Shown: in pieces, positions 41,598 through 58,611 of the stretch
Position numbering within the stretch: the stretch's first letter is position 1
How the letters are laid out: each line of letters starts with the position of its first letter
The notes under the pieces: model-generated
What the model saw: only the letters and a program-made list of their open reading frames with translations
Databases searched by the model: none
What the model was told of the DNA's origin: nothing
Assembly (NCBI GenBank): GCA_016214655.1
Contig: JACROC010000006.1
Coordinates: 21,377 to 85,376 of the forward strand
Source: Candidatus Harrisonbacteria bacterium
Lineage (GTDB): Bacteria; Patescibacteriota; Minisyncoccia; UBA6257; 02-FULL-45-10c
Reading direction: 5' to 3'
Length of the DNA stretch: 64,000 nt
Made by a program: the position numbers and the translations under genes

Positions 41598-41633
41598 CCC
41601 CAGCTATATTTGCGATCGCAAATATAGCTGGGG
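41598..41633. repeat. 36-bp perfect palindrome, copy 1 of a 3-member family
   Basis: CCCCAGCTATATTTGCGATCGCAAATATAGCTGGGG, ending 25 bp upstream of the PaaX-like ATG. Confidence 0.8.
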
Positions 41634-41658
41634 TATTATAAATAAACTCCATATATCT

Positions 41659-42213
41659 ATGCGAATTGGTCCAATTCAAAAAAAGTTTTTAATTTTACTT
41701 TTCGGCCACTTATCTATGGGATTTTGTTATTCTTATGGGCAGCGCGCCAAGGTATTACGAGAAATGGATAAAGAATGGGAGCGAGTTAATGAAGAATCGC
41801 TGCGTCAGGCTATTCAAGGTCTTTATAAGAATAGATTGATAGATATAAAAGAATCGGCTGACGGCAAAGTTGTAATAAAACTTCAAGATCAGGGGAGGGA
41901 AAAAGTCTTAAGTTATAAATTAGATGAGATGGAAATTCCTAAAGCTAAAAGGTGGGACGGTAAATGGCGGATGGTCTTATTTGATATCCCCGATAATAAG
42001 AAGAAAGCCCGGGAGTCTTTGCGTCTTCATTTAAAGCGTTTGGGCTTTTATCAGTATCAGAAGAGTGTATTTATTTATCCATGCGAATGCAAAAACGAAA
42101 TCGATTTTTTGGTTGAGTTCCATAAAATTCGTCCGTATGTGCGGCAGCTGATCATTTCAGAAATGGATAACGACTTTCATTTGCGGAAAATTTTTCAAAA
42201 ATTGATTGCATAG
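41659..42213 (+). CDS. PaaX-like small winged-helix regulator-family protein (Cas2-like fold C-domain)
   Basis: C-terminal WDGKWRMVLFDIPDNKKKARESLRLHLKRLGFYQYQKSVFIYP resembles the PaaX C-domain / Cas2-like strand-helix motif. N-terminal half looks like a wHTH. Confidence 0.35.
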   Translation: MRIGPIQKKFLILLFGHLSMGFCYSYGQRAKVLREMDKEWERVNEESLRQAIQGLYKNRLIDIKESADGKVVIKLQDQGREKVLSYKLDEMEIPKAKRWDGKWRMVLFDIPDNKKKARESLRLHLKRLGFYQYQKSVFIYPCECKNEIDFLVEFHKIRPYVRQLIISEMDNDFHLRKIFQKLIA

Positions 42214-42275
42214 TTGTCGAAAAAAGAAGCAATCTAAAATACCCTACCCGTATTTTTAGGTGAAAACGATTTACT

Positions 42276-42307
42276 CCAGCTATATTTGCTATAGCAAATA
42301 TAGCTGG
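42276..42307. repeat. 32-bp perfect palindrome, copy 2
   Basis: CCAGCTATATTTGCTATAGCAAATATAGCTGG, followed by gttgttgacgttttttct. 45 bp upstream of ORF 42353. Confidence 0.8.
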
Positions 42308-42352
42308 GGTTGTTGACGTTTTTTCTGAGATTGATATAGAATATACACTAAT

Positions 42353-42850
42353 ATGTTCTCTAGAAATTTTTTTATTTTTTCCGGAGTTTTGATTTTGGTT
42401 GTGGTTTTGGCGGCGGGATCGCTTTTGTGGTGGCAGAGACACAATGATCCGGTTCGTCAGCAGCAAGCATTACTTGAAGATTATCAGCGGAAGGTGGAAG
42501 AAGCTTATAGCAATGATACCTACGGCGGCTCTACGCCGGAGGAAACCCTCCGCCTTTTTGTAGAGGCTCTTAAAAAAGAAGATATTGAACTTGCAAGTAA
42601 GTATTTTGCGTTAGATGATAATTTGGATAGGGGGAGATGGTATGGGGCGTTAAAAAAAGAAAAAGAGAACGGTAAGCTAAGTAATATAATTTCCGTAATA
42701 AATAGAGCTCAACCGGGGGATAATTCAGATAAAAATTTTGAGAAGCATTATTTTAATTTTATTGTCTATCGCGGAGATGGGGAAGTAGAGGCGGATATTA
42801 GTTTAGTCTTTAACCCAACTTCAAAAGTATGGAAAATAGAAAGCTTATAA
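42353..42850 (+). CDS. hypothetical membrane-anchored protein
   Basis: N-terminal TM (FIFSGVLILVVVLAAGSLLWW) then a ~140-aa soluble domain with no recognised motif. Confidence 0.3.
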   Translation: MFSRNFFIFSGVLILVVVLAAGSLLWWQRHNDPVRQQQALLEDYQRKVEEAYSNDTYGGSTPEETLRLFVEALKKEDIELASKYFALDDNLDRGRWYGALKKEKENGKLSNIISVINRAQPGDNSDKNFEKHYFNFIVYRGDGEVEADISLVFNPTSKVWKIESL

Positions 42851-45800
42851 AAATTTTTATCCCAGTTATGCTGGGATTTTTTAGTTATGCGAATTTGGCT
42901 CTTGCGTATGAGGTAGGCACGCACGAGTTTTTGACCAAGGAAGTAGTAGAATTTTACAATCAAAATTTTTCTGGCAATAAAATCTTGGATGAATATAAGC
43001 CCGCTATTATTAGCGGCGCCAATCACGAAGATGATAATCCGCGCTGGATGAATCATTTCTATGACCCAGTTTATAATCGCGGTTTAACAAAGATTCCCGG
43101 CAATTGGGTTAGTTCCAAAGATTGGGCGCATAATTCGGATCAGCAGATTTCCGCTTTATATAATCCAGTTTTAAATACAACTATTGCCGGACTTTTGGCG
43201 GTGACTAACCCCGGAGAATTGCGCAAAACCGATTTTACTTGGGAACGCGCCATTCGTGATTATTTAAGAGGCGACAAAGAAAGAGCTTTCCGCGGGTTGG
43301 GACAGATTCTGCATTTGATTGAGGATGCTTCGGTGCCGGATCATACTCGCAATGATCCGCATCCGGCCTTTGATCAAGAAGATTTTTTAGAAACTGGCAG
43401 CCCTTATGAACTTTGGACTGGTGATTTTAATCTGGATAATCCCGATAAAAATTTGTCGTTACGATTATCCAATAAAAAACCGATTGCCTTGGATGATTTA
43501 GATACCTATTTTGATTCCTTGGCGTCATATTCAAATAATAATTTTTATAGTAAAGATACGATTGGTGGCCAAGAATATAATTTACCGAAACCAGATTATT
43601 TATTTAAAGATAGACAACGTATTTACGCATTTAAAATAGATTTCGAATTTGGAGATTATCGGTTATTTGAAAAGATTGTTCCGGATATTTTATTAAAAAA
43701 TGAACTTGAGGCAGAGTTGAGGCCGATTGTATTGCAAGATTACTGGGATCGGCTTTCTGTAAAAGCGGTACAACATGGCGCCGGAGTTGTTGATTTGTTC
43801 TTTAAAGAAATTGAAAAAGCAAAAAACAACCCTAATTTTGTAACGGAAGAACCAAAGTCTTTATTAGCGCAAGTAGCGGATGCAATGCGCGGCTTATTTA
43901 CCAACATAACCGCGCTTTTTAAAGGAGAAGATGATTTGAAGTTGGTTGCAGAGATTTCGTTGGATAAAAATGAGAAGAGTGGTGAAGTTGTGGCTTTTGG
44001 TGATAACAGTGTTTTGGGTGGCGAAATTCCTAGTGGTTCCGAGCAAAATAAGATTGATAGGAATAATGGGATGAATACGGATAATGAGCCAGTTGAGTTG
44101 GACAGAAATTTTGTTGATGATCAAAATGAAGATGCGGCTGAAGCTGCTAATAGGAAGAATGAAGAAGTTGCTACTACCACTGCGGTGGTAACGAAAAATA
44201 ACACCAGCGTTTCAGAAAAACCAGTTACTGCGCCGGTTAAGAACTGTTCTTTTGCAACTGACAAAACTCCGAGCCACCAAAAACTATTAATTAATGAAGT
44301 CGCCTGGATGGGCGGGTTTTCCAGCGCTAATGACGAGTGGACGGAGCTTAAAAATATTTCCGGAGATGATTTAGATATTTCCAGTTGGCAGCTTTTGGAT
44401 AAAGATGAGCAGATCAAAATTGTATTTCCAGGCGGAGCTAAACTATCTAGCGGCGGATTCATGCTTTTGGAGAGAACCAATGACGACTCGGTTTCCGGGC
44501 TTGCGGCTAATTTAATTTATGCCGGGGCATTGTCTAATGCTAATGAGGGATTAAGACTTTTTGATCCGGATTGTAATTTAGTTGATGAGGTTTTAGCGGC
44601 GAGCGATTGGCCATCCGGAGATGCGGCTGCTCGGAAAACCATGGAGCGGGGAAGTGATTTAAGCTGGCATGCGTACAGCGGTGATGGCGAGAATTTTGGC
44701 GGAGCGCAGATTATGGGAACGCCAAAAAAAGAAAATAGTTCCCGTTATATGTCTGGCGGCGGAAATAGCGCGGCAACCGAGAATCAACAAGTTAGTCCGG
44801 CGCCGGCAACCCAGAAAATTTTAATTTCCGAGGTGCAGACTACCGGCGGCACCGGCCAGACTAACAATGAATTTATTGAACTATATAATCCGAATAATGC
44901 CGTATTTGATTTAAAAGGATACCGGTTGGTGAAACGAACTAAAACTGGTACTGCTGATACAACTATTAAATCATGGACAACTGATGCTTTTGTGCCAGCA
45001 AAAGGATTTTATCTTTGGGCGAATAGCAGTTACACCGGTATTGTGGTGACGCCGGATGCTACCACTACGGTAAGTATTGCTGATGATAACGGGATTGCCA
45101 TCCGTCTTGGCTCCGAGGACACCGGTACTATTATTGACAGCGTTGGCTGGGGAGAGGCGCAGAACGTTTTTGCGGAAGGAGCGGCATTCTTAACTAATAC
45201 CGGGGCTAACCAAAGTTTGGAAAGAAAAGCATTGCAGAATAATAGTTGTGTCTCGGCGCAATCGGGCGGAGAATTTTTAGGCAATGGCTGTGATGTGAAT
45301 AACAACCAGAATGATTTTGACCTCCGCGGTTCGCCGAATCCGCAGAGTAGCAAAAGTTTTATTGAGCCGCGCTCGGCTCCAAGCGCAGTCAGTAATTTTA
45401 ACGCCGAGTATGCATCGTCAACACTCGGCGTTTCGCTTAGTTGGAGCGCGTCGGCGGATTATTTAGGATCAACTTCTACTACTCAATACGTTTTAAGCTA
45501 TGCCACTTCTACCGGCACCGCTCTGAAAGAATTGGCCATTCTGACGGCGACTACCACTTACAAATTTACCACTGCGGAAGTTGGATTGAATTATGATTTC
45601 TTAATTTCGGCAAAAGACAAAGAGGGGTTGGCTTCTGACTCCAGTACCAAGACATTAAGCGTGCCGAGCCAGTTTACTAACTTTTATTTTTATAAAGACA
45701 CCCGTACTGCTTCCAGCACAAAATATCTGGCGGAGTTTTATTATAACAATTACCCGCTTATCCAGGATTTGTACTGGAGTCCGGCGGATAGTTCTTGGAA

Positions 45801-47046
45801 AATCTTAGTTTTTTATCTGAATAAAGAGGCGCCGAAAGAACTGGAATTGAATGCCGGTAATAATTGGCAACCAGGAAATTTAAGCGGGGTGTTGGATATA
45901 GTTTATGCCAATTGTGCCAGCGGAAATTCAAACAGATTTTCTTTGACTCTTCCGGATGTAGAATCGCAGTGCAATAGTGGCGGCGGAGTGGCTAATAATG
46001 CGTTTAAATTCAGTAATCTGGAAGATCCGCATATTTTACTGGAGCTAGCCACGACTACTGCCGGCATCACTTTCGCGGCTGATGATTTTATAACTGTTGG
46101 AGCTTATTCGTTATACGATGCAGGAGCCGGCGACCAGAAATTTAAATTATCAACTTTGGATCGTGATAAATATTATTTCAGTACCAGTACGCCGACTCAC
46201 CAGGCGCCAGCGATGCCGGAAAATTTGGAATTGAAAGTTAATTCTGACTCATCTCTTTTAAGAATTATCTGGGATAAAGGAACTCTAGACGGCGATACGT
46301 TGGATAATTTAATAACTTTTGAGATCAATTATTCTACTACCACTTTGGATGATGCCGGGTGGGGTGCGGTTCCGAATGCTAGCCAGGATCCGGGAGAGGG
46401 CAGTGAAATTAACGGCCGTCCGTTTACTAAAATTACAGTTGAGCCGGACAATACTTATAATATAGCTTTGAGAGCGAAAGATGATTTCGGTAATGTTTCT
46501 TCTGCGACTACCACGATTTATTTTATTCCGGAAATTTCACCACCATATGGAATGTCCAATATAGAGTGGGGTCATTTGAATAGTTCTTCTACCATTGAAA
46601 TCGGTTTTAATGCTAACGCCTATCCTTTTATGACCGCCAATAAAACTAGCGCTATTTTGTTCTTTTTAAATCAGCTTCCGCCAGCCGGTTATTCATTTTC
46701 TAATAATGCTGAGCGATGGACTATCGGCGGTTCAAACAGTGTTTTGAAGCTGCAATATAATACCTGCCAGAGCAATAACGACGGTTTGCTGGGCGGTTTG
46801 CTGATGCATAATGATTCCAGTTGTCCGAATGGCGGCAGCGGACTCAGGAAAAATTCGGTGCGGAAAGATCTGACTTCTGGACAAACCAATTTCACTACAA
46901 CGGTTGCCGGGGTGCTTACTAGCGGCGGGACTGAATCACATACTTTTAGCACTGGTGATTATCTGACCATGGGATTTTATGAGCGTAACGGCAGCACTTT
47001 TGAGGAAGTTTCCGTTTACAATAAAAAAATCTATTTTCAACCATAG
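42829..47046 (+). CDS. giant secreted protein: N-terminal Zn-dependent phospholipase C / P1-nuclease-superfamily domain, two lamin-tail (LTD) domains, and a long beta-rich Ser/Thr-rich C-terminal region
   Basis: Signal peptide. Mature N-terminus YEVGTHEF..., ANHEDDNPRWMNHFYDPVYN and ILHLIEDASVPDHTRND match the His/Asp zinc-ligand pattern of Zn-PLC (HFYDPD, LHYLGD...PMHAAN). Two LTD signatures LLINEVAWMGG...DEWTELKN and ILISEVQTTGG...NEFIELYNPNN...DLKGYRL. Confidence 0.55.
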   Translation: MENRKLIKIFIPVMLGFFSYANLALAYEVGTHEFLTKEVVEFYNQNFSGNKILDEYKPAIISGANHEDDNPRWMNHFYDPVYNRGLTKIPGNWVSSKDWAHNSDQQISALYNPVLNTTIAGLLAVTNPGELRKTDFTWERAIRDYLRGDKERAFRGLGQILHLIEDASVPDHTRNDPHPAFDQEDFLETGSPYELWTGDFNLDNPDKNLSLRLSNKKPIALDDLDTYFDSLASYSNNNFYSKDTIGGQEYNLPKPDYLFKDRQRIYAFKIDFEFGDYRLFEKIVPDILLKNELEAELRPIVLQDYWDRLSVKAVQHGAGVVDLFFKEIEKAKNNPNFVTEEPKSLLAQVADAMRGLFTNITALFKGEDDLKLVAEISLDKNEKSGEVVAFGDNSVLGGEIPSGSEQNKIDRNNGMNTDNEPVELDRNFVDDQNEDAAEAANRKNEEVATTTAVVTKNNTSVSEKPVTAPVKNCSFATDKTPSHQKLLINEVAWMGGFSSANDEWTELKNISGDDLDISSWQLLDKDEQIKIVFPGGAKLSSGGFMLLERTNDDSVSGLAANLIYAGALSNANEGLRLFDPDCNLVDEVLAASDWPSGDAAARKTMERGSDLSWHAYSGDGENFGGAQIMGTPKKENSSRYMSGGGNSAATENQQVSPAPATQKILISEVQTTGGTGQTNNEFIELYNPNNAVFDLKGYRLVKRTKTGTADTTIKSWTTDAFVPAKGFYLWANSSYTGIVVTPDATTTVSIADDNGIAIRLGSEDTGTIIDSVGWGEAQNVFAEGAAFLTNTGANQSLERKALQNNSCVSAQSGGEFLGNGCDVNNNQNDFDLRGSPNPQSSKSFIEPRSAPSAVSNFNAEYASSTLGVSLSWSASADYLGSTSTTQYVLSYATSTGTALKELAILTATTTYKFTTAEVGLNYDFLISAKDKEGLASDSSTKTLSVPSQFTNFYFYKDTRTASSTKYLAEFYYNNYPLIQDLYWSPADSSWKILVFYLNKEAPKELELNAGNNWQPGNLSGVLDIVYANCASGNSNRFSLTLPDVESQCNSGGGVANNAFKFSNLEDPHILLELATTTAGITFAADDFITVGAYSLYDAGAGDQKFKLSTLDRDKYYFSTSTPTHQAPAMPENLELKVNSDSSLLRIIWDKGTLDGDTLDNLITFEINYSTTTLDDAGWGAVPNASQDPGEGSEINGRPFTKITVEPDNTYNIALRAKDDFGNVSSATTTIYFIPEISPPYGMSNIEWGHLNSSSTIEIGFNANAYPFMTANKTSAILFFLNQLPPAGYSFSNNAERWTIGGSNSVLKLQYNTCQSNNDGLLGGLLMHNDSSCPNGGSGLRKNSVRKDLTSGQTNFTTTVAGVLTSGGTESHTFSTGDYLTMGFYERNGSTFEEVSVYNKKIYFQP

Positions 47047-47104
47047 ATATTCGTGATAATCTGAATTCAGCTCTGTAATTGAAAAAGGATAACCTTTGTT
47101 AGCG

Positions 47105-47365
47105 ATGGCTGCGCCGCTGATAAGTTTGATTTGTCTGATTTTCGGAATGACGCACCAGATAAAAATTATCATAGACAAAGGACATTGTGAGGAGCTGTCC
47201 TTGCCAAGGATTTTTTTGGGAACTTTTTCCGGAGTGGTCTGGGTGCTTTACGGACTGGAGCTTGGCAATAACTGGATGATTGCGCTGAATGTAGTCGGAA
47301 TTATTATGAATTTGGCTTTGATGTCGATTATCTTCCATTTGCGTAAAAAACTTCCACCTCAATAA
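47105..47365 (+). CDS. SemiSWEET-like (MtN3/PQ-loop) small sugar transporter
   Basis: 86 aa, 3 predicted TM. LIFGMTHQIKIIIDKGHCEELSLPRIFLGTFSGVVWVLYG parallels the SemiSWEET PQ-loop region (PQV.RV..TK...DIS...Y....G...W..YG) with HQ in place of PQ. Confidence 0.45.
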   Translation: MAAPLISLICLIFGMTHQIKIIIDKGHCEELSLPRIFLGTFSGVVWVLYGLELGNNWMIALNVVGIIMNLALMSIIFHLRKKLPPQ

Positions 47366-47495
47366 GGCGGATTTTGTTTTGGGGATTGCGCCCTCCTGAT
47401 CAGGACGCGGGTGTTTATAGAATCATCTTTTTTGAAATGGAGCCGGCCAATTTCGGATTCAATCGGGCAGTTTATTATGATGCGCCGTTAGATTT

Positions 47496-47521
47496 AAAAA
47501 GTAGCGTTTAACGCTACTTTT
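47496..47521. terminator. bidirectional terminator between convergent genes
   Basis: aaaaa-gtagcg-tttaa-cgctac-tttt, with the A-run and T-run flanking a 6-bp GC-containing stem. Overlaps the stop of the minus-strand gene. Confidence 0.5.
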
Positions 47522-48350
47522 AATTTGTCTCACCGCCTTCTTTTATTTCAGAGATTCTTTTAATGGTGCGGTCGTAGACTTCGTCGTTTTCTATTGCGAT
47601 TCCCAAGCCTTTTATTTTGAGATCTTTTTGCGGGCCATTTTTGAAGGCGCCTAGGCGGGTGCTGAGGAAATCTGTGAGCTTTTCCAGCATTCCAGAAACT
47701 TTCATTAATTTATGATGTTGGTTTGTCGGGATTCCGCGCCGGGAAAAAGCCAGATGCAGCATTTCATGGGCTACTGTCCCATAAAAATAGACCCCGCTTT
47801 CTTCATAGGATATATCATTATTGATGCGGCGATAATAATTTTCCCAATGATAAAGCGTTTCAGCGATTTCCTCCACATATATTTCCGCGCGATTCTGGTT
47901 CAAAAAAGCTCTGCCCAGAATTCCTTGTGCCGAATCGATTATTCGGTTTTTATCGCTTTTACATTGTTTCCGGTCTTTTTTATTTTGATACCGGCTGCAA
48001 TCTTCGCGTAGTATTCTGTACTCTGATCGCAGATAGTCTTGATAAAGATTATTTGCCGGTTGTCCGAGGACGGCCGATGCCCGGCTTTCTATTACCTGGC
48101 GATTTTTTTCGCAGCGCGTCTTCTTTCCATTTTCGTATTGTTCGCAATCGCGCATGAGAAGCTGATAATAAAAATCCTCCTTTAGAAAAACGATTTCTGG
48201 TAGTGGAGTATTAGGAGGTAGATCCGTCAGTTTCAGGATTTTTTTCCAGGTGTCTTGGACTAATACCGTATCCACTTGCTCTTCATCGCAGCTGGCTAAG
48301 GTTAAAATTGGCAGAAGCAGTATAATCCGCCATATTTTTTTAAGGTGCAC
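47520..48350 (-). CDS. putative lipoprotein zinc metallopeptidase (HExxH)
   Basis: Signal peptide plus lipobox ILTLASC. HExxH in VAHEMLHLAF. GTG start. Confidence 0.4.
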   Translation of the reverse strand: MHLKKIWRIILLLPILTLASCDEEQVDTVLVQDTWKKILKLTDLPPNTPLPEIVFLKEDFYYQLLMRDCEQYENGKKTRCEKNRQVIESRASAVLGQPANNLYQDYLRSEYRILREDCSRYQNKKDRKQCKSDKNRIIDSAQGILGRAFLNQNRAEIYVEEIAETLYHWENYYRRINNDISYEESGVYFYGTVAHEMLHLAFSRRGIPTNQHHKLMKVSGMLEKLTDFLSTRLGAFKNGPQKDLKIKGLGIAIENDEVYDRTIKRISEIKEGGETN

Positions 48351-48420
48351 AGCGACTCCATTAATCAGCGCAGTTATTTAATCTATAACATATTCATTAG
48401 CGGCTCACAATTGAATTTTA

Positions 48421-48453
48421 ATAAAAATTAAATCCGCCCTTTTAGGGGCGGAT
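48421..48453 (-). terminator. rho-independent terminator (minus strand)
   Basis: On the minus strand: atccgccc-ctaaaa-gggcggat followed by ttaatttttatt. Confidence 0.5.
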
Positions 48454-48461
48454 AATAATGC

Positions 48462-49174: not shown

Positions 49175-49657
49175 ATGATTTGCATGGTTATTATCTTAGA
49201 TAATATCCGCAGCGTCCATAACGTAGGATCAATTTTCCGTACTGCCGATGCCGCGGGCGTTGAGAAAATTTATTTATGCGGCATTACACCGGAGCCGGTA
49301 GATCGCTTCGGTAGGCCACTGGAGCAATTTGTTAAAGTTTCTCTTGGAGCGGAGAAAACAGTGGAATGGCAAAAGATTAAAGTTATAAGTAAATTGATTG
49401 ATAAATTAAAAAAAGAAAACTATAAAATTTTTGCGGTAGAACAATCCAAAAAATCTATCCCGTTCTATACCCCTAACCCTAAACCCCATACCCTTAAAAA
49501 AACCACATTAGTTTTTGGTAACGAAGTAAAAGGAATTTCACCGGCGATTTTGAAGAAGGCGGATAAGATTTTGGAAATTCCGATGAGTGGCAGAAAAGAA
49601 TCTTTGAATGTGGCTGTCGCTTTCGGTATTGTTGTATTCGGTATTTTATATAAATAA
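49175..49657 (+). CDS. SpoU/TrmH-family RNA 2'-O-methyltransferase
   Basis: ILDNIRSVHNVGSIFRTADAAGV...LVFGNEVKGIS...LNVAVAFGIVVF (SPOUT motifs). Confidence 0.75.
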   Translation: MICMVIILDNIRSVHNVGSIFRTADAAGVEKIYLCGITPEPVDRFGRPLEQFVKVSLGAEKTVEWQKIKVISKLIDKLKKENYKIFAVEQSKKSIPFYTPNPKPHTLKKTTLVFGNEVKGISPAILKKADKILEIPMSGRKESLNVAVAFGIVVFGILYK

Positions 49658-50706: not shown

Positions 50707-50749
50707 TTTAAAGGCGTGGTATGGATGGTTTACGTGTTATATTAAAAAG

Positions 50750-51175
50750 ATGCGCCTGATTAGCAGACAAAAAAACCAATATTTCCTGCGTTTTGATTAC
50801 GGAGAGGACTTTTTAATGGAGTTCAAAAGATTTTTCTTAAACTATAAAATTGGCGGCGGCTGGGTTAGCGGATTGGGCTCCATGATCAATCCGGAGCTTG
50901 CTTATTATGATTTAGAAAAAGGAAAGTACCTTAATAAAAGATTTACAGGTAAGTTTGAAGTTTTAAATTTAACCGGCAACGCCGCTTATCTGGGCAAAAA
51001 TTTGGTTCTACACATTCACATTACCTTGAGTGGCAGAGATTATAAAGTGTTTGGCGGCCATTTAATTGACGGGAAGGTGGGCGGAACTTTGGAGGTGTTT
51101 TTAAATGCCGTATCCGGAACTAAGCGATTAAAGAAAAAACTTGATAGCGCCACTGGTTTGACGCTATTGTATTAG
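50750..51175 (+). CDS. PPC-domain (DUF296) protein
   Basis: FLRFDYGEDFLMEF...VSGLGSMINPEL...LHIHITLSGRDYKVFGGHLIDGKVGGTLEVFL matches the DUF296/PPC pattern. Confidence 0.5.
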   Translation: MRLISRQKNQYFLRFDYGEDFLMEFKRFFLNYKIGGGWVSGLGSMINPELAYYDLEKGKYLNKRFTGKFEVLNLTGNAAYLGKNLVLHIHITLSGRDYKVFGGHLIDGKVGGTLEVFLNAVSGTKRLKKKLDSATGLTLLY

Positions 51176-51190
51176 AACCGATAAGATTTC

Positions 51191-52390
51191 ATGCCTATTG
51201 AATCACAAAAGAAAATTTTAGGTTTGCGTCCGAATGTTTTCTGGCTGGGGCTGGTAAGCTTATTAAATGATTTTTCTTCTGAATTAATTTATTCGGTCAT
51301 GCCGGCTTTTTTGACCGCGGTTTTAGGTGCGCCCCCTATTTTAGTCGGTTTTATAGAGGGTTTTGCCGATGCCTTGGCGAGTGTTTTAAAGATTTATTCC
51401 GGCTGGTTTTCAGATAAAATCCGAAAGCGGAAGATTCTGGCAGTCACTGGTTATACAATTTCTACGGCTACGCGCTGGTTTTTAGCTTTAGTCGCTAATT
51501 TCTGGCAAGTGTTTATTTTACGCGCGATCGATAGAGTCGGTAAGGGACTTCGCGATTCGCCGCGAGATGCGCTTATTTCCGAATCCGTTGAAGTAAAAGA
51601 GTTGGGAAAATCTTTCGGTTATCATCGTGCGATGGATGGTGTGGGTTCTGCCCTTGGTCCTCTCTGTGCGGTTTTGCTTTTGCCGCTGATTCTGAATGAT
51701 TACCGGTTACTGTTTAAAATTGGATTTGTGGTGGGAATACTGTCGGTCTTAACCTTCATTTTTGTAAAGGATGTTAAAAAGGAAAAAACTTCAGAACCGG
51801 AAGAACCTCATCCGCCCTTCAGTTTTTCTTTAAGAGATTATAGCCATAATTTTAAAGTTTATATTGCGGCGGTTTTTGTTTTCGGTTTGGGGGTGATGCC
51901 GTTGGCGCTTTTATTATTGAAGGCGCAGGAGCTTGGTCTGAACAGCTACGCCATACCTTTGATGTATTTTATTTACAACCTCTCTTTTATTATTTTTGCC
52001 ATTCCGGCTGGAAAACTCGCTGATCGTCTTGGCGACAAAAAAATAATTGCCGGAGGATTTTTAGCCGCTGTCCTGGCATACTTGGAATTGGCATTTTTTG
52101 CTACCGTGCCAGCGGTTATTTTAGGATTTATTTTATTCGGGATCTATTCAGCCATGACTGATGGTGTAGAAAGGGCTTTTGCCGCTAAATTGGTTTCGTC
52201 TGATAAAATTGCGACCGGCCAGGGATTTTTGAATGCGGCCGTAGGAATTTCTTCGCTGCTGGCTGGTTTAGTTGGCGGAGCCATCTGGACCCAATTTGGA
52301 TCCAATACCGCTCTTTTATACGGCGCAGCTATGATGGTTGTTGGGCTATTAACATTTATTCATTTAAATAGGCATCAGAACAATGTATAA
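51191..52390 (+). CDS. MFS transporter
   Basis: 399 aa and 12 predicted TM helices. Loop 2-3 motif GWFSDKIRKRKIL and the MFS-like repeat in the second half. Confidence 0.6.
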   Translation: MPIESQKKILGLRPNVFWLGLVSLLNDFSSELIYSVMPAFLTAVLGAPPILVGFIEGFADALASVLKIYSGWFSDKIRKRKILAVTGYTISTATRWFLALVANFWQVFILRAIDRVGKGLRDSPRDALISESVEVKELGKSFGYHRAMDGVGSALGPLCAVLLLPLILNDYRLLFKIGFVVGILSVLTFIFVKDVKKEKTSEPEEPHPPFSFSLRDYSHNFKVYIAAVFVFGLGVMPLALLLLKAQELGLNSYAIPLMYFIYNLSFIIFAIPAGKLADRLGDKKIIAGGFLAAVLAYLELAFFATVPAVILGFILFGIYSAMTDGVERAFAAKLVSSDKIATGQGFLNAAVGISSLLAGLVGGAIWTQFGSNTALLYGAAMMVVGLLTFIHLNRHQNNV

Positions 52391-52396
52391 TAAGAT

Positions 52397-52807
52397 ATGG
52401 CCAATATACGGTACGTTTTAGGAGTCATCCTTCTTCTGTACGCGGCGGCATTTGTATTTTTTATTATTGATTGCCGAAGCGCGCCAGATTCGTGTTCCGG
52501 AGAAATTTATCTCACCGGATTGACGATCTTAGCGATTATAGGCGGCTTGGCTTTGTTTAAAAATTTTGCGCATATTGGTTATGCTATTGCCATGATACTG
52601 GGATTATTGGGCTTTGTTTATTCCTGGGCTTTTTACGCGCTCGGTTCCACTGAAACGAATTTACAGCCCGGTACCCTCACTGTCATTTTTCCGTCATTCT
52701 TTTTAATCTTTGGCTTTACCTTTACTTCTAGCGTCGTCGGTCTTATGAAAAAGCCGGCTGAGAAGTTGAAATTAGAATACAAAAAATTAAAGAAAAATAA
52801 TTTTTAA
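52397..52807 (+). CDS. hypothetical small membrane protein
   Basis: 136 aa with 4 hydrophobic segments and no motif. Confidence 0.3.
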   Translation: MANIRYVLGVILLLYAAAFVFFIIDCRSAPDSCSGEIYLTGLTILAIIGGLALFKNFAHIGYAIAMILGLLGFVYSWAFYALGSTETNLQPGTLTVIFPSFFLIFGFTFTSSVVGLMKKPAEKLKLEYKKLKKNNF

Positions 52808-52809
52808 TT

Positions 52810-53856
52810 ATGGAGAAATATCGCATTGCTATAAACGGATTTGGCAGAATTGGCCGGCTATTTTTCCGGCAGGCTTTTGGCAACAAAAATTTAAATATCG
52901 TAGCCATTAATGATCTCGGTGACATTGAAAACCTCGCTTATCTTTTAAAATATGATTCGGTTTATCGAACTTATGACAAATCGGTGGAATTCAAGCGGGA
53001 TCCAGGCGGGATTGGCGGGGAATTAATAGTTGATGGAAAAGTAATCAAGGTCATTCAAGAAAAAGATTTAACTAAATTGCCGTGGAAGGATTTAAAAATT
53101 GACGTGGCGGTGGAATCTACTGGCGCCTTTGAATCATTTGAGAGGGCTTCATTTCATGTGACTGCGGCCGGCGCCAGGCGGGTGGTAATTTCTGCTCCAG
53201 CTAAAGATGAGGAGGGTGTTGCCGGAGGTAAAACAATTTTGCTTGGAGTTAACGAAGATGAATTTAAAACCTGCAGGGTGTCTTCCAATGGTTCTTGCAC
53301 TACTAACGCCACTTCTCCGGTAGCGGCGATTATGCATGAGGAGATCGGGATTTTAAAGGCATTTTTGGCCACTACTCATGGTTATACCGCTACGCAGAAT
53401 TTAGTTGATGGTCCGACTAAAGGAAAAGATTTTCGTCGTGGCCGGGCAGCGGCAGTGAATATCGCCCCGTCTTTTACCGGAGCGGCGATTTCCGTAACCA
53501 GGGCGATTAAAGATTTAGAGGGAAAATTTGACGGTATTGCGTTACGCGTGCCGATTGTGACCGGTTCGCTTGGTGATTTTACTTTTCTTACTAAAAGAAA
53601 GACTTCCGCGGAGGAAGTAAATGATATTTTTAGAAAAGCCGCTGATTCAAAACGTTGGAAAGGAATTTTAAAAGTTAGCGAGGATCAGCTGGTTTCTTCG
53701 GATATTATCGGCGAATCGGTGGCTGCTATTGTGGATTTGCAATATACCAAAGTTGTTGACGATGATTTGGTGAAAGTTCTAGCTTGGTACGACAACGAAT
53801 GGGGTTATGTGACTACGTTAGTTACGCATGTATTAAGGGCAGCAGACGCAATTTAA
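52810..53856 (+). CDS. gap: glyceraldehyde-3-phosphate dehydrogenase (type I)
   Basis: RIAINGFGRIGRLFFR...SNGSCTTNATSPVAAIM (catalytic Cys) ...WYDNEWGY. Confidence 0.9.
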   Translation: MEKYRIAINGFGRIGRLFFRQAFGNKNLNIVAINDLGDIENLAYLLKYDSVYRTYDKSVEFKRDPGGIGGELIVDGKVIKVIQEKDLTKLPWKDLKIDVAVESTGAFESFERASFHVTAAGARRVVISAPAKDEEGVAGGKTILLGVNEDEFKTCRVSSNGSCTTNATSPVAAIMHEEIGILKAFLATTHGYTATQNLVDGPTKGKDFRRGRAAAVNIAPSFTGAAISVTRAIKDLEGKFDGIALRVPIVTGSLGDFTFLTKRKTSAEEVNDIFRKAADSKRWKGILKVSEDQLVSSDIIGESVAAIVDLQYTKVVDDDLVKVLAWYDNEWGYVTTLVTHVLRAADAI

Positions 53857-54308
53857 TGCTTGTTTACATTGGCGCTGATCATCGGGGATTTCCTTTAAAG
53901 GAATCCCTTAAAAAATATTTACAGGAAAATGGCTATGAGGCAGTTGATGTTGGGAATAAAAAATTAGATCCTAAAGACGATTATCCTGATTTTGCTTCTA
54001 AGGTTGCTAAAGAAGTCAGTTTAGACCCGGAACACTCTCGGGGTATTGTAATTTGCGGTTCTGGAGTCGGGGTTGATGTGGTAGCGAATAAATATCCGAA
54101 TGTCCGTTCAGCGCTGGCTGCCACGCCGGATCAGGCAATGGATTCCCGCAATGACGACGATACTAATGTCCTTGCTTTGGCGGCTAATTATTTAAGCGAG
54201 GACGAGGCGTTGAAGATTACCGAGGTTTGGCTGCAGACTGATTTTTCCGAGGAAGAGAGGCACTGGAGAAGATTGGGGAAGATTGAAAAAATTGAAGATA
54301 AGCTATAG
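53856..54308 (+). CDS. rpiB: ribose-5-phosphate isomerase B (RpiB/LacAB family)
   Basis: MLVYIGADHRGFPLKE...GIVICGSGVGVDVVANK...ALAANYL. ATG overlaps the gap stop (taATG). Confidence 0.75.
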   Translation: MLVYIGADHRGFPLKESLKKYLQENGYEAVDVGNKKLDPKDDYPDFASKVAKEVSLDPEHSRGIVICGSGVGVDVVANKYPNVRSALAATPDQAMDSRNDDDTNVLALAANYLSEDEALKITEVWLQTDFSEEERHWRRLGKIEKIEDKL

Positions 54309-55037
54309 TTTCTTATAGAGCTGCTTAAAAATCACTTTTTGGAAATCCGATAAGGCGGAATTTTCAATAATTATCGCCTGTTCGGTATTAAGATCAATAA
54401 AGGCTACCCGGTCCCGATAAATTATCTGGATAATGTTTTGATTGAAGAGATCAACTTCTGGCGGAATAAATTTGATAAAACGCTCCAATCGGGGGCGTTT
54501 TTGCTTGCCGGATATTGGATTGCTGATTACTAACCGTTCCAATCGTTTTTTGTCACGACGCTCACGATAATCTGGAGCTAAATAGCGATTTACCGCTGCC
54601 AGGTCGCGTTCTGAGGTATAACGGTAGAAGGTGTCTCTGGGCTTGCTATGATTAATGACATCGTCAAAAACTGCGCGGATTCCTTTTGGCCCGTGAAAAA
54701 TTCGCATGGAGCTGTTTACAGTTTCGGCATGGGAAAGGTCTTGATTTTTTATTGATCCAGCGAGACTTTCAAGGTTTTTGGTAAATAATTTTAAAATGCG
54801 CTGGCTGTTTTCGGGAACGTAATAATTTCTCTCCCCAATTTTTTTAGTTGAAATTAATTTTGCATCGAGTAAGGCGCGCAGTGCGCGATAGACTGCCGGC
54901 CGGTGGACTTTAGTTTTGGAAACTATTGCGGTAGCCAGCAGGGGACCGCTATTTTTTACTGCTTGGTAGATTTTATCGGTGTGTTTTGGGAACCCAAGCT
55001 GGATGAAAACTTGGGTGAGCTCTGTAATTTCTTTCAT
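54303..55037 (-). CDS. TrmB-family (sugar-responsive) transcriptional regulator
   Basis: N-terminal wHTH ...IYQAVKNSGPLLATAIVSKTKVHRPAVYRALRALLDAKLIS... plus a TrmB-like C-domain. Divergent from prs. Confidence 0.55.
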   Translation of the reverse strand: MKEITELTQVFIQLGFPKHTDKIYQAVKNSGPLLATAIVSKTKVHRPAVYRALRALLDAKLISTKKIGERNYYVPENSQRILKLFTKNLESLAGSIKNQDLSHAETVNSSMRIFHGPKGIRAVFDDVINHSKPRDTFYRYTSERDLAAVNRYLAPDYRERRDKKRLERLVISNPISGKQKRPRLERFIKFIPPEVDLFNQNIIQIIYRDRVAFIDLNTEQAIIIENSALSDFQKVIFKQLYKKL

Positions 55038-55044
55038 AATATGA

Positions 55045-55062
55045 GTGTACTTTATTTAGTAC
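55045..55062. promoter_or_regulatory. 18-bp palindromic operator-like site TGTACTTTATTTAGTACA (copy 1), between the TrmB-like gene and prs
   Basis: Perfect inverted repeat TGTACT / AGTACA. With flanks, 31 of 33 bp identical to the copy at 57095-57128. Confidence 0.5.
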
Positions 55063-55139
55063 ATATTTTCAAGTTTTTTTGCGGAAATTTAGCATATCTG
55101 ATATGCTCATGGGGTTGTTCTTTGAAAAGGAGGCAGGAA

Positions 55140-56132
55140 ATGAACCCGTCCCACGAAAACTTATTTGTTCTGGTTTCTTCGCCGCTAATGTATGATCTTG
55201 GCGAGGCAATCATACGGCATCTGGAGGGCCGTAAGATGCAGATGGCGCATCATCGGATTGAATACACCAGTTTTGCCAATGGCGAGTTTCTTCCATACAT
55301 TCCGCAGCCGATCCGCGGACAACATGCCTTTTTTCTTCATGGGCTTCAGCACCCCGATCCTAATTCGGCGGTTATGAAGATGCTTTTGACGGCCGATGCC
55401 ATGCGCCGCGCTTCAGTGGCGGGCATTACTTTAGTGACTCCGTATCTTCCATATTTGCGGCAGGATCGCAAAGACCGGGCGCGGGTGCCGATTTCAGCCA
55501 GGCTTCTCGCTGACTTGATTGAATCTAACCGGACAGTGAAGCAATTGATTACGATTGATATGCACGCTGAGCAGGAGCAGGGATTTTTCTCGATTCCGGT
55601 TGATAATTTAACCGGCGTTCGCCTGTTTTCGGAACACATCCGGGCGAAGTTCGGAGATGATGTCAAAAATCTGGTTGCGGTGGCGGCGGATTTCGGAGCT
55701 GCGGTGCGCACCCGGAGATTAGCGAGGGCGCTCGGTGATATTCCGGCTGCGATCTTTGAGAAGCGGCGGCCAACGCCGAATCAGGCAGAGATTGTTTCTG
55801 TTAATGGTACTAGTGTTGCGGGTAAAGAGGTGGTTATTTACGAAGACATGATTGATACCGGACATACTATTTTAGGAGTTATAAAGACTCTAAAAAATAT
55901 GGGTGCCCGGGGAGTTCATGTTTATGCGACTCATGGGATTTTTAGCGGCGGCGCTGAAAAACATTTTGCTGCTGAAGATTCTGCTGTTGTCTGCACTGAT
56001 TCGATTCCGCGAACGGTTGAATATTATCAGAGGGAGAAATGGCTGACCAGAATTCCGATTGACGCCTATTTTGCTGAAGCTATTTATGCGGCAACGCAGA
56101 TGGGCGGCAGCATCAGCAGGCTTGCGCAATGA
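55140..56132 (+). CDS. prs: ribose-phosphate pyrophosphokinase (PRPP synthase)
   Basis: RBS aaggagg, then MNPSHENLFVLVSS...YTSFANGEF...LITIDMHAEQ...YEDMIDTGHT. ATG at 55140. Confidence 0.85.
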   Translation: MNPSHENLFVLVSSPLMYDLGEAIIRHLEGRKMQMAHHRIEYTSFANGEFLPYIPQPIRGQHAFFLHGLQHPDPNSAVMKMLLTADAMRRASVAGITLVTPYLPYLRQDRKDRARVPISARLLADLIESNRTVKQLITIDMHAEQEQGFFSIPVDNLTGVRLFSEHIRAKFGDDVKNLVAVAADFGAAVRTRRLARALGDIPAAIFEKRRPTPNQAEIVSVNGTSVAGKEVVIYEDMIDTGHTILGVIKTLKNMGARGVHVYATHGIFSGGAEKHFAAEDSAVVCTDSIPRTVEYYQREKWLTRIPIDAYFAEAIYAATQMGGSISRLAQ

Positions 56133-56656
56133 ATCTCAAAGAATATATTCGCGATGTGCCGGATTTCCCAAGAAAAGGTATTTTGTTTAGGGATATTACA
56201 TCCTTACTGGAACAGCCGGAGGCATTTAGAGAAGTTATCAGAGAAATGTCAACTAAGTGGCGCGATAAGATTGACGTCATTACAGCCCTGGATGCCCGGG
56301 GCTTTATTTTCGGCGGGGCGCTTTCGGTAGAGCTTGGAGTTCCTCTGGTGCTTGCGCGAAAGAAAGGAAAATTGCCGGGAAAAACTGTGAGCGTTTCTTA
56401 CGGATTGGAATATGGCACTGATACTTTAGAGATGCATGCTGATTCTTTGACTTCGGGAATGCGCGTTTTGGTGGTTGATGATTTACTGGCAACCGGAGGT
56501 ACGGCAAGCGCAGCTTGCTCGCTTATCGAAAAATTAGGCGCAGAAGTAGCGGGATGCGCTTTTGTAATTGAACTAGAAGGATTGGGAGGCCGTGAGAATC
56601 TTAGCAAATATCAAATACAATCACTTGTGCGTTACACCGAGGAAACAAATGAATAA
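56129..56656 (+). CDS. apt: adenine phosphoribosyltransferase
   Basis: IRDVPDFPRKGILFRDITSLL...VLVVDDLLATGGTA (PRPP-binding motif). Confidence 0.9.
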   Translation: MNLKEYIRDVPDFPRKGILFRDITSLLEQPEAFREVIREMSTKWRDKIDVITALDARGFIFGGALSVELGVPLVLARKKGKLPGKTVSVSYGLEYGTDTLEMHADSLTSGMRVLVVDDLLATGGTASAACSLIEKLGAEVAGCAFVIELEGLGGRENLSKYQIQSLVRYTEETNE

Positions 56657-57056
56657 TCCAGCTAAAATTATTTATTGCGCTGATGTCATTGCGCGATATG
56701 GAGAACATATTGTCATTGTAGAGCGACTTGGTTCGGTAAAAGGTTTGGCGCTTCCAGGAGGAAAGCAGGATCCTGGTGAAACTCTTTCGCAAACAGTTAA
56801 GCGAGAATTTCTTGAAGAAACTGGCCTCGAGCTCGTTATTGAAGAAGTATTAGGAACGCGAGCTGAAGACGGCCGTGATCTGCGCGGAAGATATGTTTCA
56901 ACAATATTTCTTGGAACCGCGCATGGTGTGCCGCGTGACGAGGTTGGTAAAACTCGAGTAAAGTTTTTTGATCTTCAGACGCTTGCAGAAAATAGACATC
57001 TTTTTGTCTTTGATCACGCAATTATTCTGGAAGAGTATCGCCGCCTAGTAGGTTAA
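56649..57056 (+). CDS. NUDIX hydrolase
   Basis: Nudix box GGKQDPGETLSQTVKREFLEETGLEL. ATG at 56649. Confidence 0.75.
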   Translation: MNNPAKIIYCADVIARYGEHIVIVERLGSVKGLALPGGKQDPGETLSQTVKREFLEETGLELVIEEVLGTRAEDGRDLRGRYVSTIFLGTAHGVPRDEVGKTRVKFFDLQTLAENRHLFVFDHAIILEEYRRLVG

Positions 57057-57074
57057 TCCGAACGGCGGTTTTTT
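57039..57074 (+). repeat. 36-bp segment CGCCGCCTAGTAGGTTAATCCGAACGGCGGTTTTTT (terminator-like: GC stem plus T6), copy 1
   Basis: Exact duplicate of 57726-57761. Spans the last codons and stop of the NUDIX gene plus a ccgcc...ggcgg hairpin and a T-run. Confidence 0.6.
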
Positions 57075-57095
57075 GTTGCGGGCGATCCATTATTT

Positions 57096-57113
57096 TGTAC
57101 TTTATTTAGTACA
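57096..57113. promoter_or_regulatory. 18-bp palindromic operator-like site TGTACTTTATTTAGTACA (copy 2), upstream of ORF 57198
   Basis: Identical palindrome plus the conserved flank ATTTTCAA. Possible -35/-10 TTGTAC-17-TTCAAT overlapping it. Confidence 0.5.
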
Positions 57114-57197
57114 GATTTTCAATTTTTCCAGCATAAATTTTTAAATTCTATTATATTCATTAAGCAGTTCTTTGAAATCGTAAACAGGAGGTGGCTC

Positions 57198-57716
57198 ATG
57201 GAGATCGAGTTGTATCGAAATACTAAAGCCGAGATTCCGGATGGTGAGAAAGAGAAGGATTCTTCAATTAAGAAAGCCCAAGAGCTTTGCAAACGTTATA
57301 GGAATTTGGGGTTAGAAGGGCAGGCTACCATGATTGAAAAAGCGATAAAAGTTGGTGGGCCGCTTATCACTGATAAGATTAAGCCGGATTTATTTTGGCG
57401 GAAAATATCTGATAATGACTTGCGTATTTGGAGAATTTTTTTACCAACCAGTTATAGATCTGATTTGGGGCCTGGCAGGACACTCGCAAGCTATGCTTTT
57501 GACCAAATACCGGAAGAAGTAATTTCGGAGTTTGAGTTAGCAAAAGCACTGCGTTTATTTAATGTTTACGAAGTTAGGACTCCTGAAGGAAGGAATATTG
57601 ATCCGATTTTGATTGGATTGTACGGCAATACCTCATATCTTATTGCTCGCTGGGGGGAAAGCTTGCAATCGTTTGAGGAAATTAAAAGACAAGTGCGTCA
57701 AAGCAGAGGTTGGTAA
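57198..57716 (+). CDS. hypothetical protein
   Basis: RBS acaggagg. 172 aa with no recognisable motif. Bracketed by the duplicated operator and the duplicated terminator segment. Confidence 0.3.
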   Translation: MEIELYRNTKAEIPDGEKEKDSSIKKAQELCKRYRNLGLEGQATMIEKAIKVGGPLITDKIKPDLFWRKISDNDLRIWRIFLPTSYRSDLGPGRTLASYAFDQIPEEVISEFELAKALRLFNVYEVRTPEGRNIDPILIGLYGNTSYLIARWGESLQSFEEIKRQVRQSRGW

Positions 57717-57725
57717 AATTATCAG

Positions 57726-57761
57726 CGCCGCCTAGTAGGTTAATCCGAACGGCGGTTTTTT
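57726..57761 (+). repeat. 36-bp terminator-like segment, copy 2
   Basis: Identical to 57039-57074. Confidence 0.6.
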
Positions 57762-57829
57762 ATTTGTATAAGAATTTATTTTATGTTATTTTTTAGTCAG
57801 CAAGAATATTGAAAAGATAAAGAGGCCGG

Positions 57830-58546
57830 ATGATTTCGGAAAAAATCAGCACTTTGGTTTTAATCAGGCACGGCAGATCTTTGAGGAATGTTTATGAAAC
57901 TGCCGGGCCGTTTTATGAAAATAATGAGCAGAGGAGAAAAGTAGGAATTTCGCAGGATCGTTTAATACCGCTGGTTGAGGAAGGATGGGAACAGGCACGC
58001 GGAGCAGGCAAGGGCATTCGCGAATTGTTCGGTGTACCCAATTACCTTTTTAATTCCGGATTTGTAAGAACCAAGCAGACAACCGAAGGGATTTTAGAAG
58101 CCTATTCCGCGGAGGAGCTGAAAAGTTTGACTATTATAGAAAGCCATTTGATCAGGGAGCGCAATCCAGGATATCTTTGGAATTTTACGGTTGCGGAAGT
58201 TGAGAAATTTTTTCCGTGGTGGGAAGAGTATTGGAGAAAAGCTGATCCGTTTATTACTTTTCCGCTTGGCGGCGAAAGTATGGCGAGTATATGCGAGGGA
58301 AGGCTGGCGGCTTTCTTACGTAATTTGGATGGAGAGCTGGCATATGTGCCAGGCGGATCCAAAGTTTTCGTTGTCTCTCACGGCCGGGCGATTTTGGGAA
58401 TGCGGTATCTTTTGGAGAATTGGAACTATGAAAGAATTCATTCTGCTTTGCGCAATGAAAATCCGCCGAATTGTTCCGTTACTTGGTATCAATTTGATAA
58501 TTCTGGAAAAGCAGAATTACAGTTTGCTAATAAAGTTTTTTATTAA
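57830..58546 (+). CDS. histidine phosphatase-family protein (phosphoglycerate-mutase-like)
   Basis: LVLIRHGRSLRN (RHG catalytic motif) and a later His in VSHGRAIL. Confidence 0.55.
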   Translation: MISEKISTLVLIRHGRSLRNVYETAGPFYENNEQRRKVGISQDRLIPLVEEGWEQARGAGKGIRELFGVPNYLFNSGFVRTKQTTEGILEAYSAEELKSLTIIESHLIRERNPGYLWNFTVAEVEKFFPWWEEYWRKADPFITFPLGGESMASICEGRLAAFLRNLDGELAYVPGGSKVFVVSHGRAILGMRYLLENWNYERIHSALRNENPPNCSVTWYQFDNSGKAELQFANKVFY

Positions 58547-58572
58547 AACCTCCTTAATTGGGAGGTTTTTAT
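58547..58572 (+). terminator. rho-independent terminator
   Basis: aacctcc-ttaattg-ggaggtt followed by ttt. Confidence 0.5.
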
Positions 58573-58575
58573 TTA

Positions 58576-58611
58576 CCCCAGTTATATTTGCTATAGCAAA
58601 TATAACTGGGG
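58576..58611. repeat. 36-bp perfect palindrome, copy 3
   Basis: CCCCAGTTATATTTGCTATAGCAAATATAACTGGGG. Differs from copy 1 by paired (compensatory) substitutions that keep the symmetry perfect. 39 bp upstream of rpe. Confidence 0.8.

Follow-up and report, generated by a model that had tools for sequence, protein, structure and literature searches.

What are the long palindromes that stand on either side of a small PaaX-like gene in the ultra-small genome of a Candidatus Harrisonbacteria bacterium, and what ties them to that gene? The question is raised by a stretch of 64,000 nucleotides of contig JACROC010000006.1 (assembly GCA_016214655.1, positions 21,377 to 85,376), the whole of which is referred to here as the window. 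It contains three copies of the palindrome, two of them—the 'home' sites—bracketing the gene of a protein designated here as mini-PaaX, and the third one dispersed:

41597..41634, no strand: palindrome copy 1, the upstream home site; 19+19 nt, 100% complementary, centre GATC
41659..42213, + strand: gene of mini-PaaX (184 aa), with a winged helix at the N-terminus and a ferredoxin fold of the Cas2 type after it; bracketed by copies 1 and 2
42273..42310, no strand: palindrome copy 2, the downstream home site; 95% complementary, centre TATA, one T.G mismatch
58575..58612, no strand: palindrome copy 3, dispersed; 19+19 nt, 100% complementary, centre TATA, with a T..A variant of the C..G pair

The three copies are found where the first-pass annotation of the window had placed them, each running one base further on either side, to 38 bp, and they share the form A-CCCCAG-Y-TATATTTGC-NATN-GCAAATATA-R-CTGGGG-T. 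The differences between copies are mirrored on both arms, as had been claimed there as well: C/T on one arm goes together with G/A on the other, and the centre is either GATC or TATA. The mismatch of copy 2 is the T.G at aCTCC/GGGGt, the perfect stretch of this copy being 42276-42307. By calculation, a perfect palindrome of 38 bp is expected about 2e-7 times per 64 kb, and the observed count of the half-site pattern was reached in none of 100 shuffles. When the 64 kb were searched for the 18-bp core, of which 14 bases were specified, three exact copies were obtained, no weaker ones with one or two mismatches, and matches with three mismatches at chance level. A chance origin is ruled out by the shuffles and by this all-or-none quality of the copies.

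The co-occurrence of the palindrome with a PaaX-like gene, put forward in the first-pass annotation as a check, turned out to be positive. Among ten other lineages fetched, with 29-73% identity of the mini-PaaX protein, five have the orthologue between two lineage-specific palindromes, four more distant ones have weaker paired repeats, partly symmetric or direct, and one, a viral contig, has nothing. The first of the five, L003, is Candidatus Harrisonbacteria RIFCSPHIGHO2_02_FULL_42_16, found by a genome scan for the palindrome; its mini-PaaX shares 73% of amino acids with that of the window, and it is syntenic with window positions 38671-46913 at about 67% nucleotide identity. Palindromes stand on both sides of its orthologue, the upstream one exhibiting a further mirrored change, TTTTATTTGC...GCAAATAAAA. 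The sites of the other lineages are as follows:

L024, 69% protein identity: TACCTCCTTATACTTGC-TATA-GCAAGTATAAGGAGGTA and TCCACCTCCTTATATTTGC-TATA-...
L025, 61% protein identity: CTTATACTTATTCTCGC-CATG-GCGAGAATAAGTATAAG; in another copy the arms measure 25 nt
L029, 41% protein identity: one palindrome per side of the gene, and two in tandem before ORF189-LTD
L008/L013/L016, 40% protein identity: AATTTCAGTTTTATTTGC-TATA-..., and an imperfect upstream copy
L034, more distant: AAAATGTTCCA-N26-TGGAACATTTT around GCTATCGC, two copies alike; only the outer 11 bp symmetric
L035, more distant: TTCA-N27-TGAA
L026, more distant: an exact 25-nt direct repeat containing GTCCGATCGGAC
L027, more distant: imperfect palindromes centred on GCGATCGC
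L028, more distant: weak

Orthologous upstream and downstream sites were both found in L003, L024, L025, L029 and L008, the trio L008/L013/L016 being kept in the family because the mini-PaaX gene adjoins the palindrome. In the five lineages with clear palindromes, the copies are alike within a genome and unlike between genomes, with a common centre kept throughout. When the intergenic regions are aligned, conservation upstream of the gene is limited to the palindrome; downstream, it covers the palindrome and a putative promoter, TTGAC(G/T)-N17-TAGAAT. The two sites of L034 are closer to each other than to their own mirror images and, judged by their sequence, look like a classic operator. In the same contig, a gene at 7238-7885, located 2.7 kb 3' of mini-PaaX and without counterpart in the window, has a weak Pfam match to Y1_Tnp, the type of IS200 and of RAYTs (REP-associated tyrosine transposases, REP standing for repetitive extragenic palindrome). 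A phage or plasmid origin of the palindromes was rejected, there being no match to their pattern in IMG/VR and only one weak protein relative in a viral contig (L033), with no palindrome in the flanks of its tblastn match.

The nature of the symmetry can be read from a gap-free alignment of 18 sites, in which pairs were counted per cell. Ninety-five percent of the cells are Watson-Crick paired, compared to 69% in shuffles and 35-45% with a slid partner, and changes on both sides are seen in 17 of the 19 stem pairs (89 double-change cells), which strongly confirms the selection for symmetry proposed in the first-pass annotation. Within genomes, pairwise differences are mirrored in 49 cases and confined to one arm in 13, these comparisons not being independent of each other. 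There is a single G.U in columns 4-20, the asymmetries are few, with A.C as frequent as G.T on the sense strand, and the central pair (columns 21/24) covaries as TA, CG and GC. Since pairing is impossible for the bases of a 4-nt loop and G.U intermediates are the norm in RNA helices, these observations indicate that it is the dyad symmetry of DNA, rather than an RNA hairpin, that is constrained.

The same data bear on a reading at the RNA level, according to which the copies are transcribed into hairpins that, placed between co-directional genes, terminate transcription, are processed by RNase III or stabilise 3' ends, and that resemble each other within a genome owing to gene conversion. Very stable folds are in fact predicted for them (-28 to -30 kcal/mol, z-scores of -8 to -9), so that they share with intrinsic terminators a stable stem-loop 3' of genes; every copy lies between co-directional genes, behind a stop codon, and a terminator scan of 41300-42600 revealed no other evident terminator in the gaps after trxB and mini-PaaX. 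They differ from intrinsic terminators, however, by having no U tract—the sequences 3' of the copies are TATTAT, TGTTGA and TGGGGC, and the terminator scan calls none of the palindromes—as well as by a core sequence kept between copies and between lineages down to 40% protein identity, whereas structure alone would need none. In addition, three copies (two of them in RIFCSPHIGHO2_02_FULL_42_16, outside the L003 locus) directly follow a canonical terminator and would hence be redundant, one of these being copy 3, just as had been noted in the first-pass annotation:

58545..58574, + strand: canonical intrinsic terminator of the His_Phos_1 gene, 10-bp stem and T tract; directly abuts copy 3

The near absence of G.U, mismatches that are A.C as often as G.T, and a covarying centre likewise count against a function in RNA. 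No match at the gathering score of Rfam 15 was found in the window, so that a known RNA is rejected, and the window contains no tRNA or tmRNA (transfer-messenger RNA) genes. An RNA function is therefore regarded as very improbable, and the hairpin RNA that the first-pass annotation had offered as an alternative is disfavoured.

As for the presumed partner, mini-PaaX matches the Pfam family PaaX_M (PF20803, the Cas2-like middle domain) with 76 bits at a cut-off of 24 (2.5e-21), and it passes NCBIfam cas2 TIGR01573 with 32.4 (cut-off 24.5). Its score against the PaaX equivalog TIGR02277, 36.5 bits over profile positions 32-150 of 279, is far under the cut-off of 264.55. The AlphaFold2 model (predicted local distance difference test score, pLDDT, 85.9) contains helices 26-41 and 45-57 and a beta hairpin at 61-75, and a Foldseek search with it ranks the PaaX of E. 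coli (8a39, 145 columns aligned) and Rv0674 (3kfw) at the top, followed by Cas2 proteins. The protein thus resembles PaaX of E. coli and Pseudomonas in having a winged helix at the N-terminus and a Cas2-like domain behind it. It is unlike PaaX in that it stops, at 184 residues, after the Cas2-like domain and lacks the C-terminal effector (phenylacetyl-CoA) domain, and that no paa catabolic genes are present beside its gene. Another difference concerns D109, located within WRMVLFDIP at the Cas2 metal-binding position (the Asp of beta-1), which is invariant in 45 sequences, whereas no Asp stands there in the alignment with Rv0674. The motif WDGKWRMVLFDIP...QKSVF shows hardly any change across the 45 homologues; on the whole, conservation is strongest in the Cas2-like half of the protein and far lower in the winged-helix half. 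The family comprises 3284 clusters at 50% identity (E<=1e-3), or 1741 at E<=1e-10, both being counts over whatever taxa.

In GenBank, the entry 100% identical to mini-PaaX (a metagenome-assembled genome, MAG, of Candidatus Harrisonbacteria) bears the name 'CRISPR-associated endonuclease Cas2' because the protein passes the TIGR01573 cut-off; at least two family members, this protein and P0020, are so named. There is a real likeness to the Cas2 of clustered regularly interspaced short palindromic repeats (CRISPR): the C-terminal half passes the cas2 cut-off, matches Cas2 structures and keeps both the beta-1 Asp and QKSVF, and the associated palindromic repeats measure 36-38 bp, which is within the size range of CRISPR repeats. 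Unlike CRISPR Cas2, mini-PaaX has a fused winged helix, the 64 kb contain no repeat-spacer array (the palindromes are 676 and 16302 bp apart), and no cas genes were seen among the scanned flanking genes, beyond which cas1 was not looked for. With no array in the window and with adjacent genes that are not cas, the GenBank name is misleading, and both a CRISPR array and a true Cas2 were rejected, as was a defence system, PADLOC giving Cas2 models only.

The palindromes are tied to mini-PaaX by their conserved pairing with its gene, by the lineage-specific sequence around a shared centre and by the symmetry at the DNA level. From these comparisons it appears, on balance, probable that they are the cognate operator sites of mini-PaaX, with autoregulation and control of the neighbouring operon composed of a small open reading frame (ORF) and a gene for a Lamin-Tail-Domain (LTD) protein. 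This reading is favoured because the span of 38 bp fits the geometry of the PaaX family: the operator of E. coli PaaX is TGATTC-N27-GAATCA, with a span of 39 bp, and steric hindrance is how PaaX represses the promoter of its own gene (PMC9493321). In the window, one site overlaps the putative promoter region of the regulator's own gene. The sites differ from PaaX operators in being palindromic over their full length, in standing on both sides of the gene and in evolving by mirrored substitutions. The genes and putative promoters concerned are these:

42353..47046, + strand: ORF165 and the gene of a 1405-aa LTD protein (LTD match 8.4e-23), the candidate target operon
58651..60162, + strand: rpe and the gene of the transketolase (tkt) N-terminal subunit, 3' of copy 3
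41610..41639, + strand: putative sigma-70-type promoter of the mini-PaaX gene, TTGCGA-N18-TATTAT; consensus scan, 9/12 matches, pattern match only
42313..42342, + strand: promoter-like site of the ORF165-LTD operon, TTGACG-N18-TAGAAT; 10/12 matches, pattern match only
58636..58644, + strand: putative extended -10-like element TGGTAAAAT ahead of rpe (ATG 58651), read from the sequence

The gene order is DsbA-like, glutaredoxin, TrxB-like, palindrome 1, mini-PaaX, palindrome 2, ORF165 and the LTD gene, and the mini-PaaX gene has the same neighbours in L024 and L025. Copy 1 lies 57 nt 3' of the trxB-like stop codon, copy 2 begins 59 nt past that of mini-PaaX, and copy 3 is located between the His_Phos_1 gene and rpe-tkt; the gaps to the next start codon on the + strand are 24 nt (copy 1, mini-PaaX ATG), 42 nt (copy 2) and 38 nt (copy 3, rpe ATG). 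The putative -35 box of mini-PaaX falls inside palindrome 1. The promoter-like site of ORF165-LTD starts 3 nt 3' of palindrome 2, its -10 box ending 10 nt before the ATG, and TTGAC(G/T)-N17-TAGAAT is kept in L003, L024 and L025. An element similar to that of rpe, TGTTAAAAT, precedes rpe in L031 and L032. A hydrophobic stretch at the N-terminus of the translation suggests that ORF165 may be anchored in the membrane; it is 43% identical to ORF189 of L029, likewise the first gene before an LTD gene, with the two tandem palindromes ahead of it. Since ORF189 is homologous to ORF165, the link between palindrome and LTD operon outlives a change of gene order. It should be mentioned that in the syntenic genomes closest to the window, at L003 (2845-3501), L024 (6821-7297) and L025 (6717-7394), the small ORF leading the LTD operon is non-homologous to ORF165 (42353-42850). 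A further observation, at 42337-42355 and 58636-58653, is that the -10-like boxes of ORF165 and rpe stop just 10 and 6 nt short of the ATG; if these boxes are real, both mRNAs would be leaderless or nearly so.

In mechanistic terms, mini-PaaX would form a homodimer via its Cas2-like domain, as Cas2 and PaaX do, and the dimer would lie across the dyad of the DNA duplex, covering the conserved centre GC-NATN-GC together with the A/T-rich shoulders on either side of it, while the two variable winged helices would contact the lineage-specific outer arms. At the upstream home site, binding over the -35/-10 region of the own promoter would result in autorepression, as at the Px promoter of E. coli PaaX. 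The downstream home site, between the mini-PaaX gene and the ORF-LTD promoter, might serve as a second operator, loop together with the upstream site, block read-through like a roadblock, or control that operon, and the third site would bring the rpe-tkt operon under the same factor. The exact symmetry might come from hairpin-templated correction during replication (quasi-palindrome template switching) or from a need for cruciform extrusion. Template-switch mutations turn imperfect repeats into more perfect ones. Quasi-palindromes are described as hot spots of such mutation in a part of PMC7202029.

Several observations weigh against the operator reading. A dimeric factor alone does not account for perfect arms of 19-25 bp, nor for the mirrored differences within a genome. 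The sites t1 and t2 of L029 have only the centre in common, yet both are perfectly symmetric to 21-23 bp, and because of this the outer arms cannot be just a recognition sequence common to the sites. No graded series of weaker sites is seen in the 64 kb. The variable winged-helix half, taken together with the invariant Cas2-type Asp, hints at more than a passive dimerisation domain. The gain of whole units by copy and paste, treated below, is left unexplained. Finally, the gap between the downstream home site and the conserved -35 box is 3 nt in the window, 26 in L024, 29 in L025 and 58 in L003, and as it varies in this way, the downstream site has no fixed activator or repressor geometry. A fixed activator geometry was rejected as a general rule: the centre of the site is estimated at about -58 at both target promoters of the window, but at about -82 in L024, -89 in L025 and -113 in L003, out of helical phase. 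The promoter-proximal placement raised in the first-pass annotation holds for the upstream copy, overlapping the regulator's own putative promoter, and does not hold for the downstream one as a rule. Its interpretation as a whole is borne out in part, namely for the gene co-occurrence and the symmetry, the RNA hairpin having fallen away and the promoter proximity being only partial.

A variable distance to the downstream promoter combined with a constant placement right after gene ends or terminators would also suit architectural or insulator sites, at which the protein marks or organises the chromosome, be it by clustering of the parS/ParB kind, as a barrier to read-through or in replication. 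The sites are few per genome, they are clustered at the gene of the presumed binder, and long perfect palindromes would be in line with such a role. On the other hand, no partner ATPase or partition genes adjoin mini-PaaX, the upstream copy overlaps the promoter region of the gene itself, and the association with ORF-LTD across rearrangement looks regulatory; we consider an architectural role distinctly improbable.

The dispersed copies also bear on the operator reading. Copy 3 is not present in the same intergenic region of L030 (the closest relative found, its rpe product having 86% amino acid identity), L031 and L032; the His_Phos_1-rpe spacer of L030 has 36 nt, compared to 104 nt in the window, and contains only a terminator and a -10 box. 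Judged from these sequences, a complete 38-bp unit was gained as copy 3 in this lineage alone, which leaves some probability to the REP/MITE-like alternative of the first-pass annotation. Where the window has palindrome 3, the same spacer of L032 is occupied by a G+C-rich insert (9753-10000, about 250 nt) without Rfam match at E<=0.01. RIFCSPHIGHO2_02_FULL_42_16 has at least four copies, full ones elsewhere in the genome standing before thyX-LemA-M48 and before the gene of a predicted membrane protein (read from sequence as having a hydrophobic N-terminus and lying beside an rRNA-like region); no orthologues of the thyX and membrane-protein genes are present in the window. All three dispersed copies seen (rpe, thyX and membrane-protein gene) stand directly after an intrinsic terminator. 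As the similarity between copies stops exactly at 38 bp, the dispersed copies are copied units and were not built by point mutation: complete units at non-orthologous places must stem from copying, and this is one of the facts that the operator reading leaves unexplained.

Copying is what would be expected of a partnership similar to that of REPs and RAYTs, in which the palindromes are small non-autonomous DNA hairpin elements and the gene they flank encodes the enzyme acting on them. The enzyme would in this case be a winged-helix-targeted Cas2-fold nuclease instead of an HUH Y1 transposase, one that recognises the hairpin or cruciform, keeps its symmetry and occasionally copies it to new intergenic sites. 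RAYT genes are flanked by REPs, and the architecture of the mini-PaaX locus matches that arrangement: a single-copy, vertically inherited and syntenic gene flanked by short extragenic palindromes that also occur elsewhere in intergenic DNA. Palindromes co-evolving with the gene through compensatory changes of the arms are a further likeness, as seen from parts of PMC3116915, PMC3337134 and PMC3733652; REPINs (REP doublets forming hairpins), RAYTs and their vertical inheritance are described in parts of the first two. In favour of such a partnership are also the complete dispersed copies at non-orthologous sites, with copy 3 missing from the closest relative, their all-or-none quality, their position directly after intrinsic terminators in three cases of three, the strict symmetry of the arms beyond any shared recognition sequence (t1 and t2 of L029), and the invariant Asp109 at the Cas2 metal-binding position in the most conserved half of the protein.

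This partnership nevertheless fails the tests by which REP/RAYT systems are defined, i.e. enzyme type, copy number and tag, while sharing with them the architecture and the turnover of copies. No Y1 transposase (PF01797) is encoded in the window, where tblastn with a Y1_Tnp-like protein found nothing. The copy number is tiny—three in 64 kb, at least four in the relative and, within about 33 kb of sequence from the L024 genome, just the two home copies, compared to tens to hundreds for REPs—and none of the copies lies inside a gene, a picture far from the dozens of scattered copies, genes included, that the first-pass annotation had associated with a selfish repeat. The REP tag GTAG/CGTC, defined in a part of PMC3733652, is absent, the palindromes ending in ACCCCAG and CTGGGGT. 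They are, moreover, perfect where REPs are imperfect, and their central tetranucleotide is symmetric, which a hairpin loop would not need. Neither a target-site duplication nor a defined excision footprint was seen at the copies. The more distant lineages have imperfect, operator-like sites, and even true Cas2 proteins are not consistently active as nucleases. A REP/RAYT-like partnership is therefore taken to be unlikely, and quite unlikely, too, is the more specific proposal that a Cas2-fold protein, targeted by its winged helix and still in possession of the catalytic-type Asp, recognises the palindromes as hairpins or cruciforms, keeps the arms symmetric and occasionally copies them after terminators.

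Taking these comparisons together, mini-PaaX is a truncated PaaX-type regulator placed outside the PaaX equivalog family, outside CRISPR Cas2 and outside REP/RAYT. What is new is a regulator of this kind with fully palindromic sites bracketing its gene and co-evolving with it; a search of the available literature revealed no paper linking PaaX-like or Cas2-like proteins with flanking palindromes in the candidate phyla radiation (CPR), to which the bacterium of the window belongs.

Some other repeats, in the window and beyond, deserve mention. Long perfect palindromes with arms of up to 35 nt and the core GCTATATTTGC-N4-GCAAATATAGC occur in MAG or metagenome contigs, at L002 4056-4095, L005 984-1057, L011 123-194, L012 5323-5394 and L019 893-934. 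No mini-PaaX gene is present in the fetched flanks of those in L002, L005/L011/L012 and L019, for which reason they were left out as distant members of the family. They may be chance matches among hairpins, as a palindromic pattern of 20 bases comprises only about 10 independent ones, or they may be dispersed family members in other lineages. The matches in L010, L014, L015, L017, L018 and L020 were discarded as not being palindromic beyond the search pattern. In the window itself, two 39-nt terminators, each a hairpin with a T tract (57039-57077 and 57726-57764, 97% identical), flank an ORF of 172 aa without Pfam match (57198-57716). The 82-nt region 5' of this ORF (57096-57177) is 74% identical to 55046-55127, ahead of a gene starting at about 55140, and both regions start with TGTACTTTATTTAGTACA, an inverted repeat and potentially a further operator. 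At 31260-31285 there is a short run, TCTAAACCCTAAACCCTAAACCCTAT, resembling (CCCTAAA)3, with weaker copies at 49464 and 63193.

Concerning the meaning of the locus, the CPR, or Patescibacteria, have very few recognisable regulators, and their control of genes is almost unknown; mini-PaaX and its palindromes represent a concrete and testable candidate pair of protein and site. The plausible target is the conserved neighbour, the operon of the giant LTD protein, LTD proteins probably having a role at the cell surface of these episymbionts. Perfect palindromes of 38-50 bp that drift in sequence, with arms and centre changing together, form an unusual evolutionary pattern, and they offer a natural case in which the dyad symmetry of duplex DNA is kept either by selection, for a cruciform or a protein, or by hairpin-templated mutation. 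Should the Cas2-fold protein indeed maintain and copy the palindromes, this would add a new class to the domesticated repeat-protein systems, one with a wide distribution in the CPR (the 1741 clusters mentioned above, unfiltered by taxonomy), with a free-living Cas2-fold protein tied to palindromic repeats of about 36 bp outside CRISPR. If the Cas2-fold domain is active on these repeats, the finding would bear on the role that Cas2 had before CRISPR.

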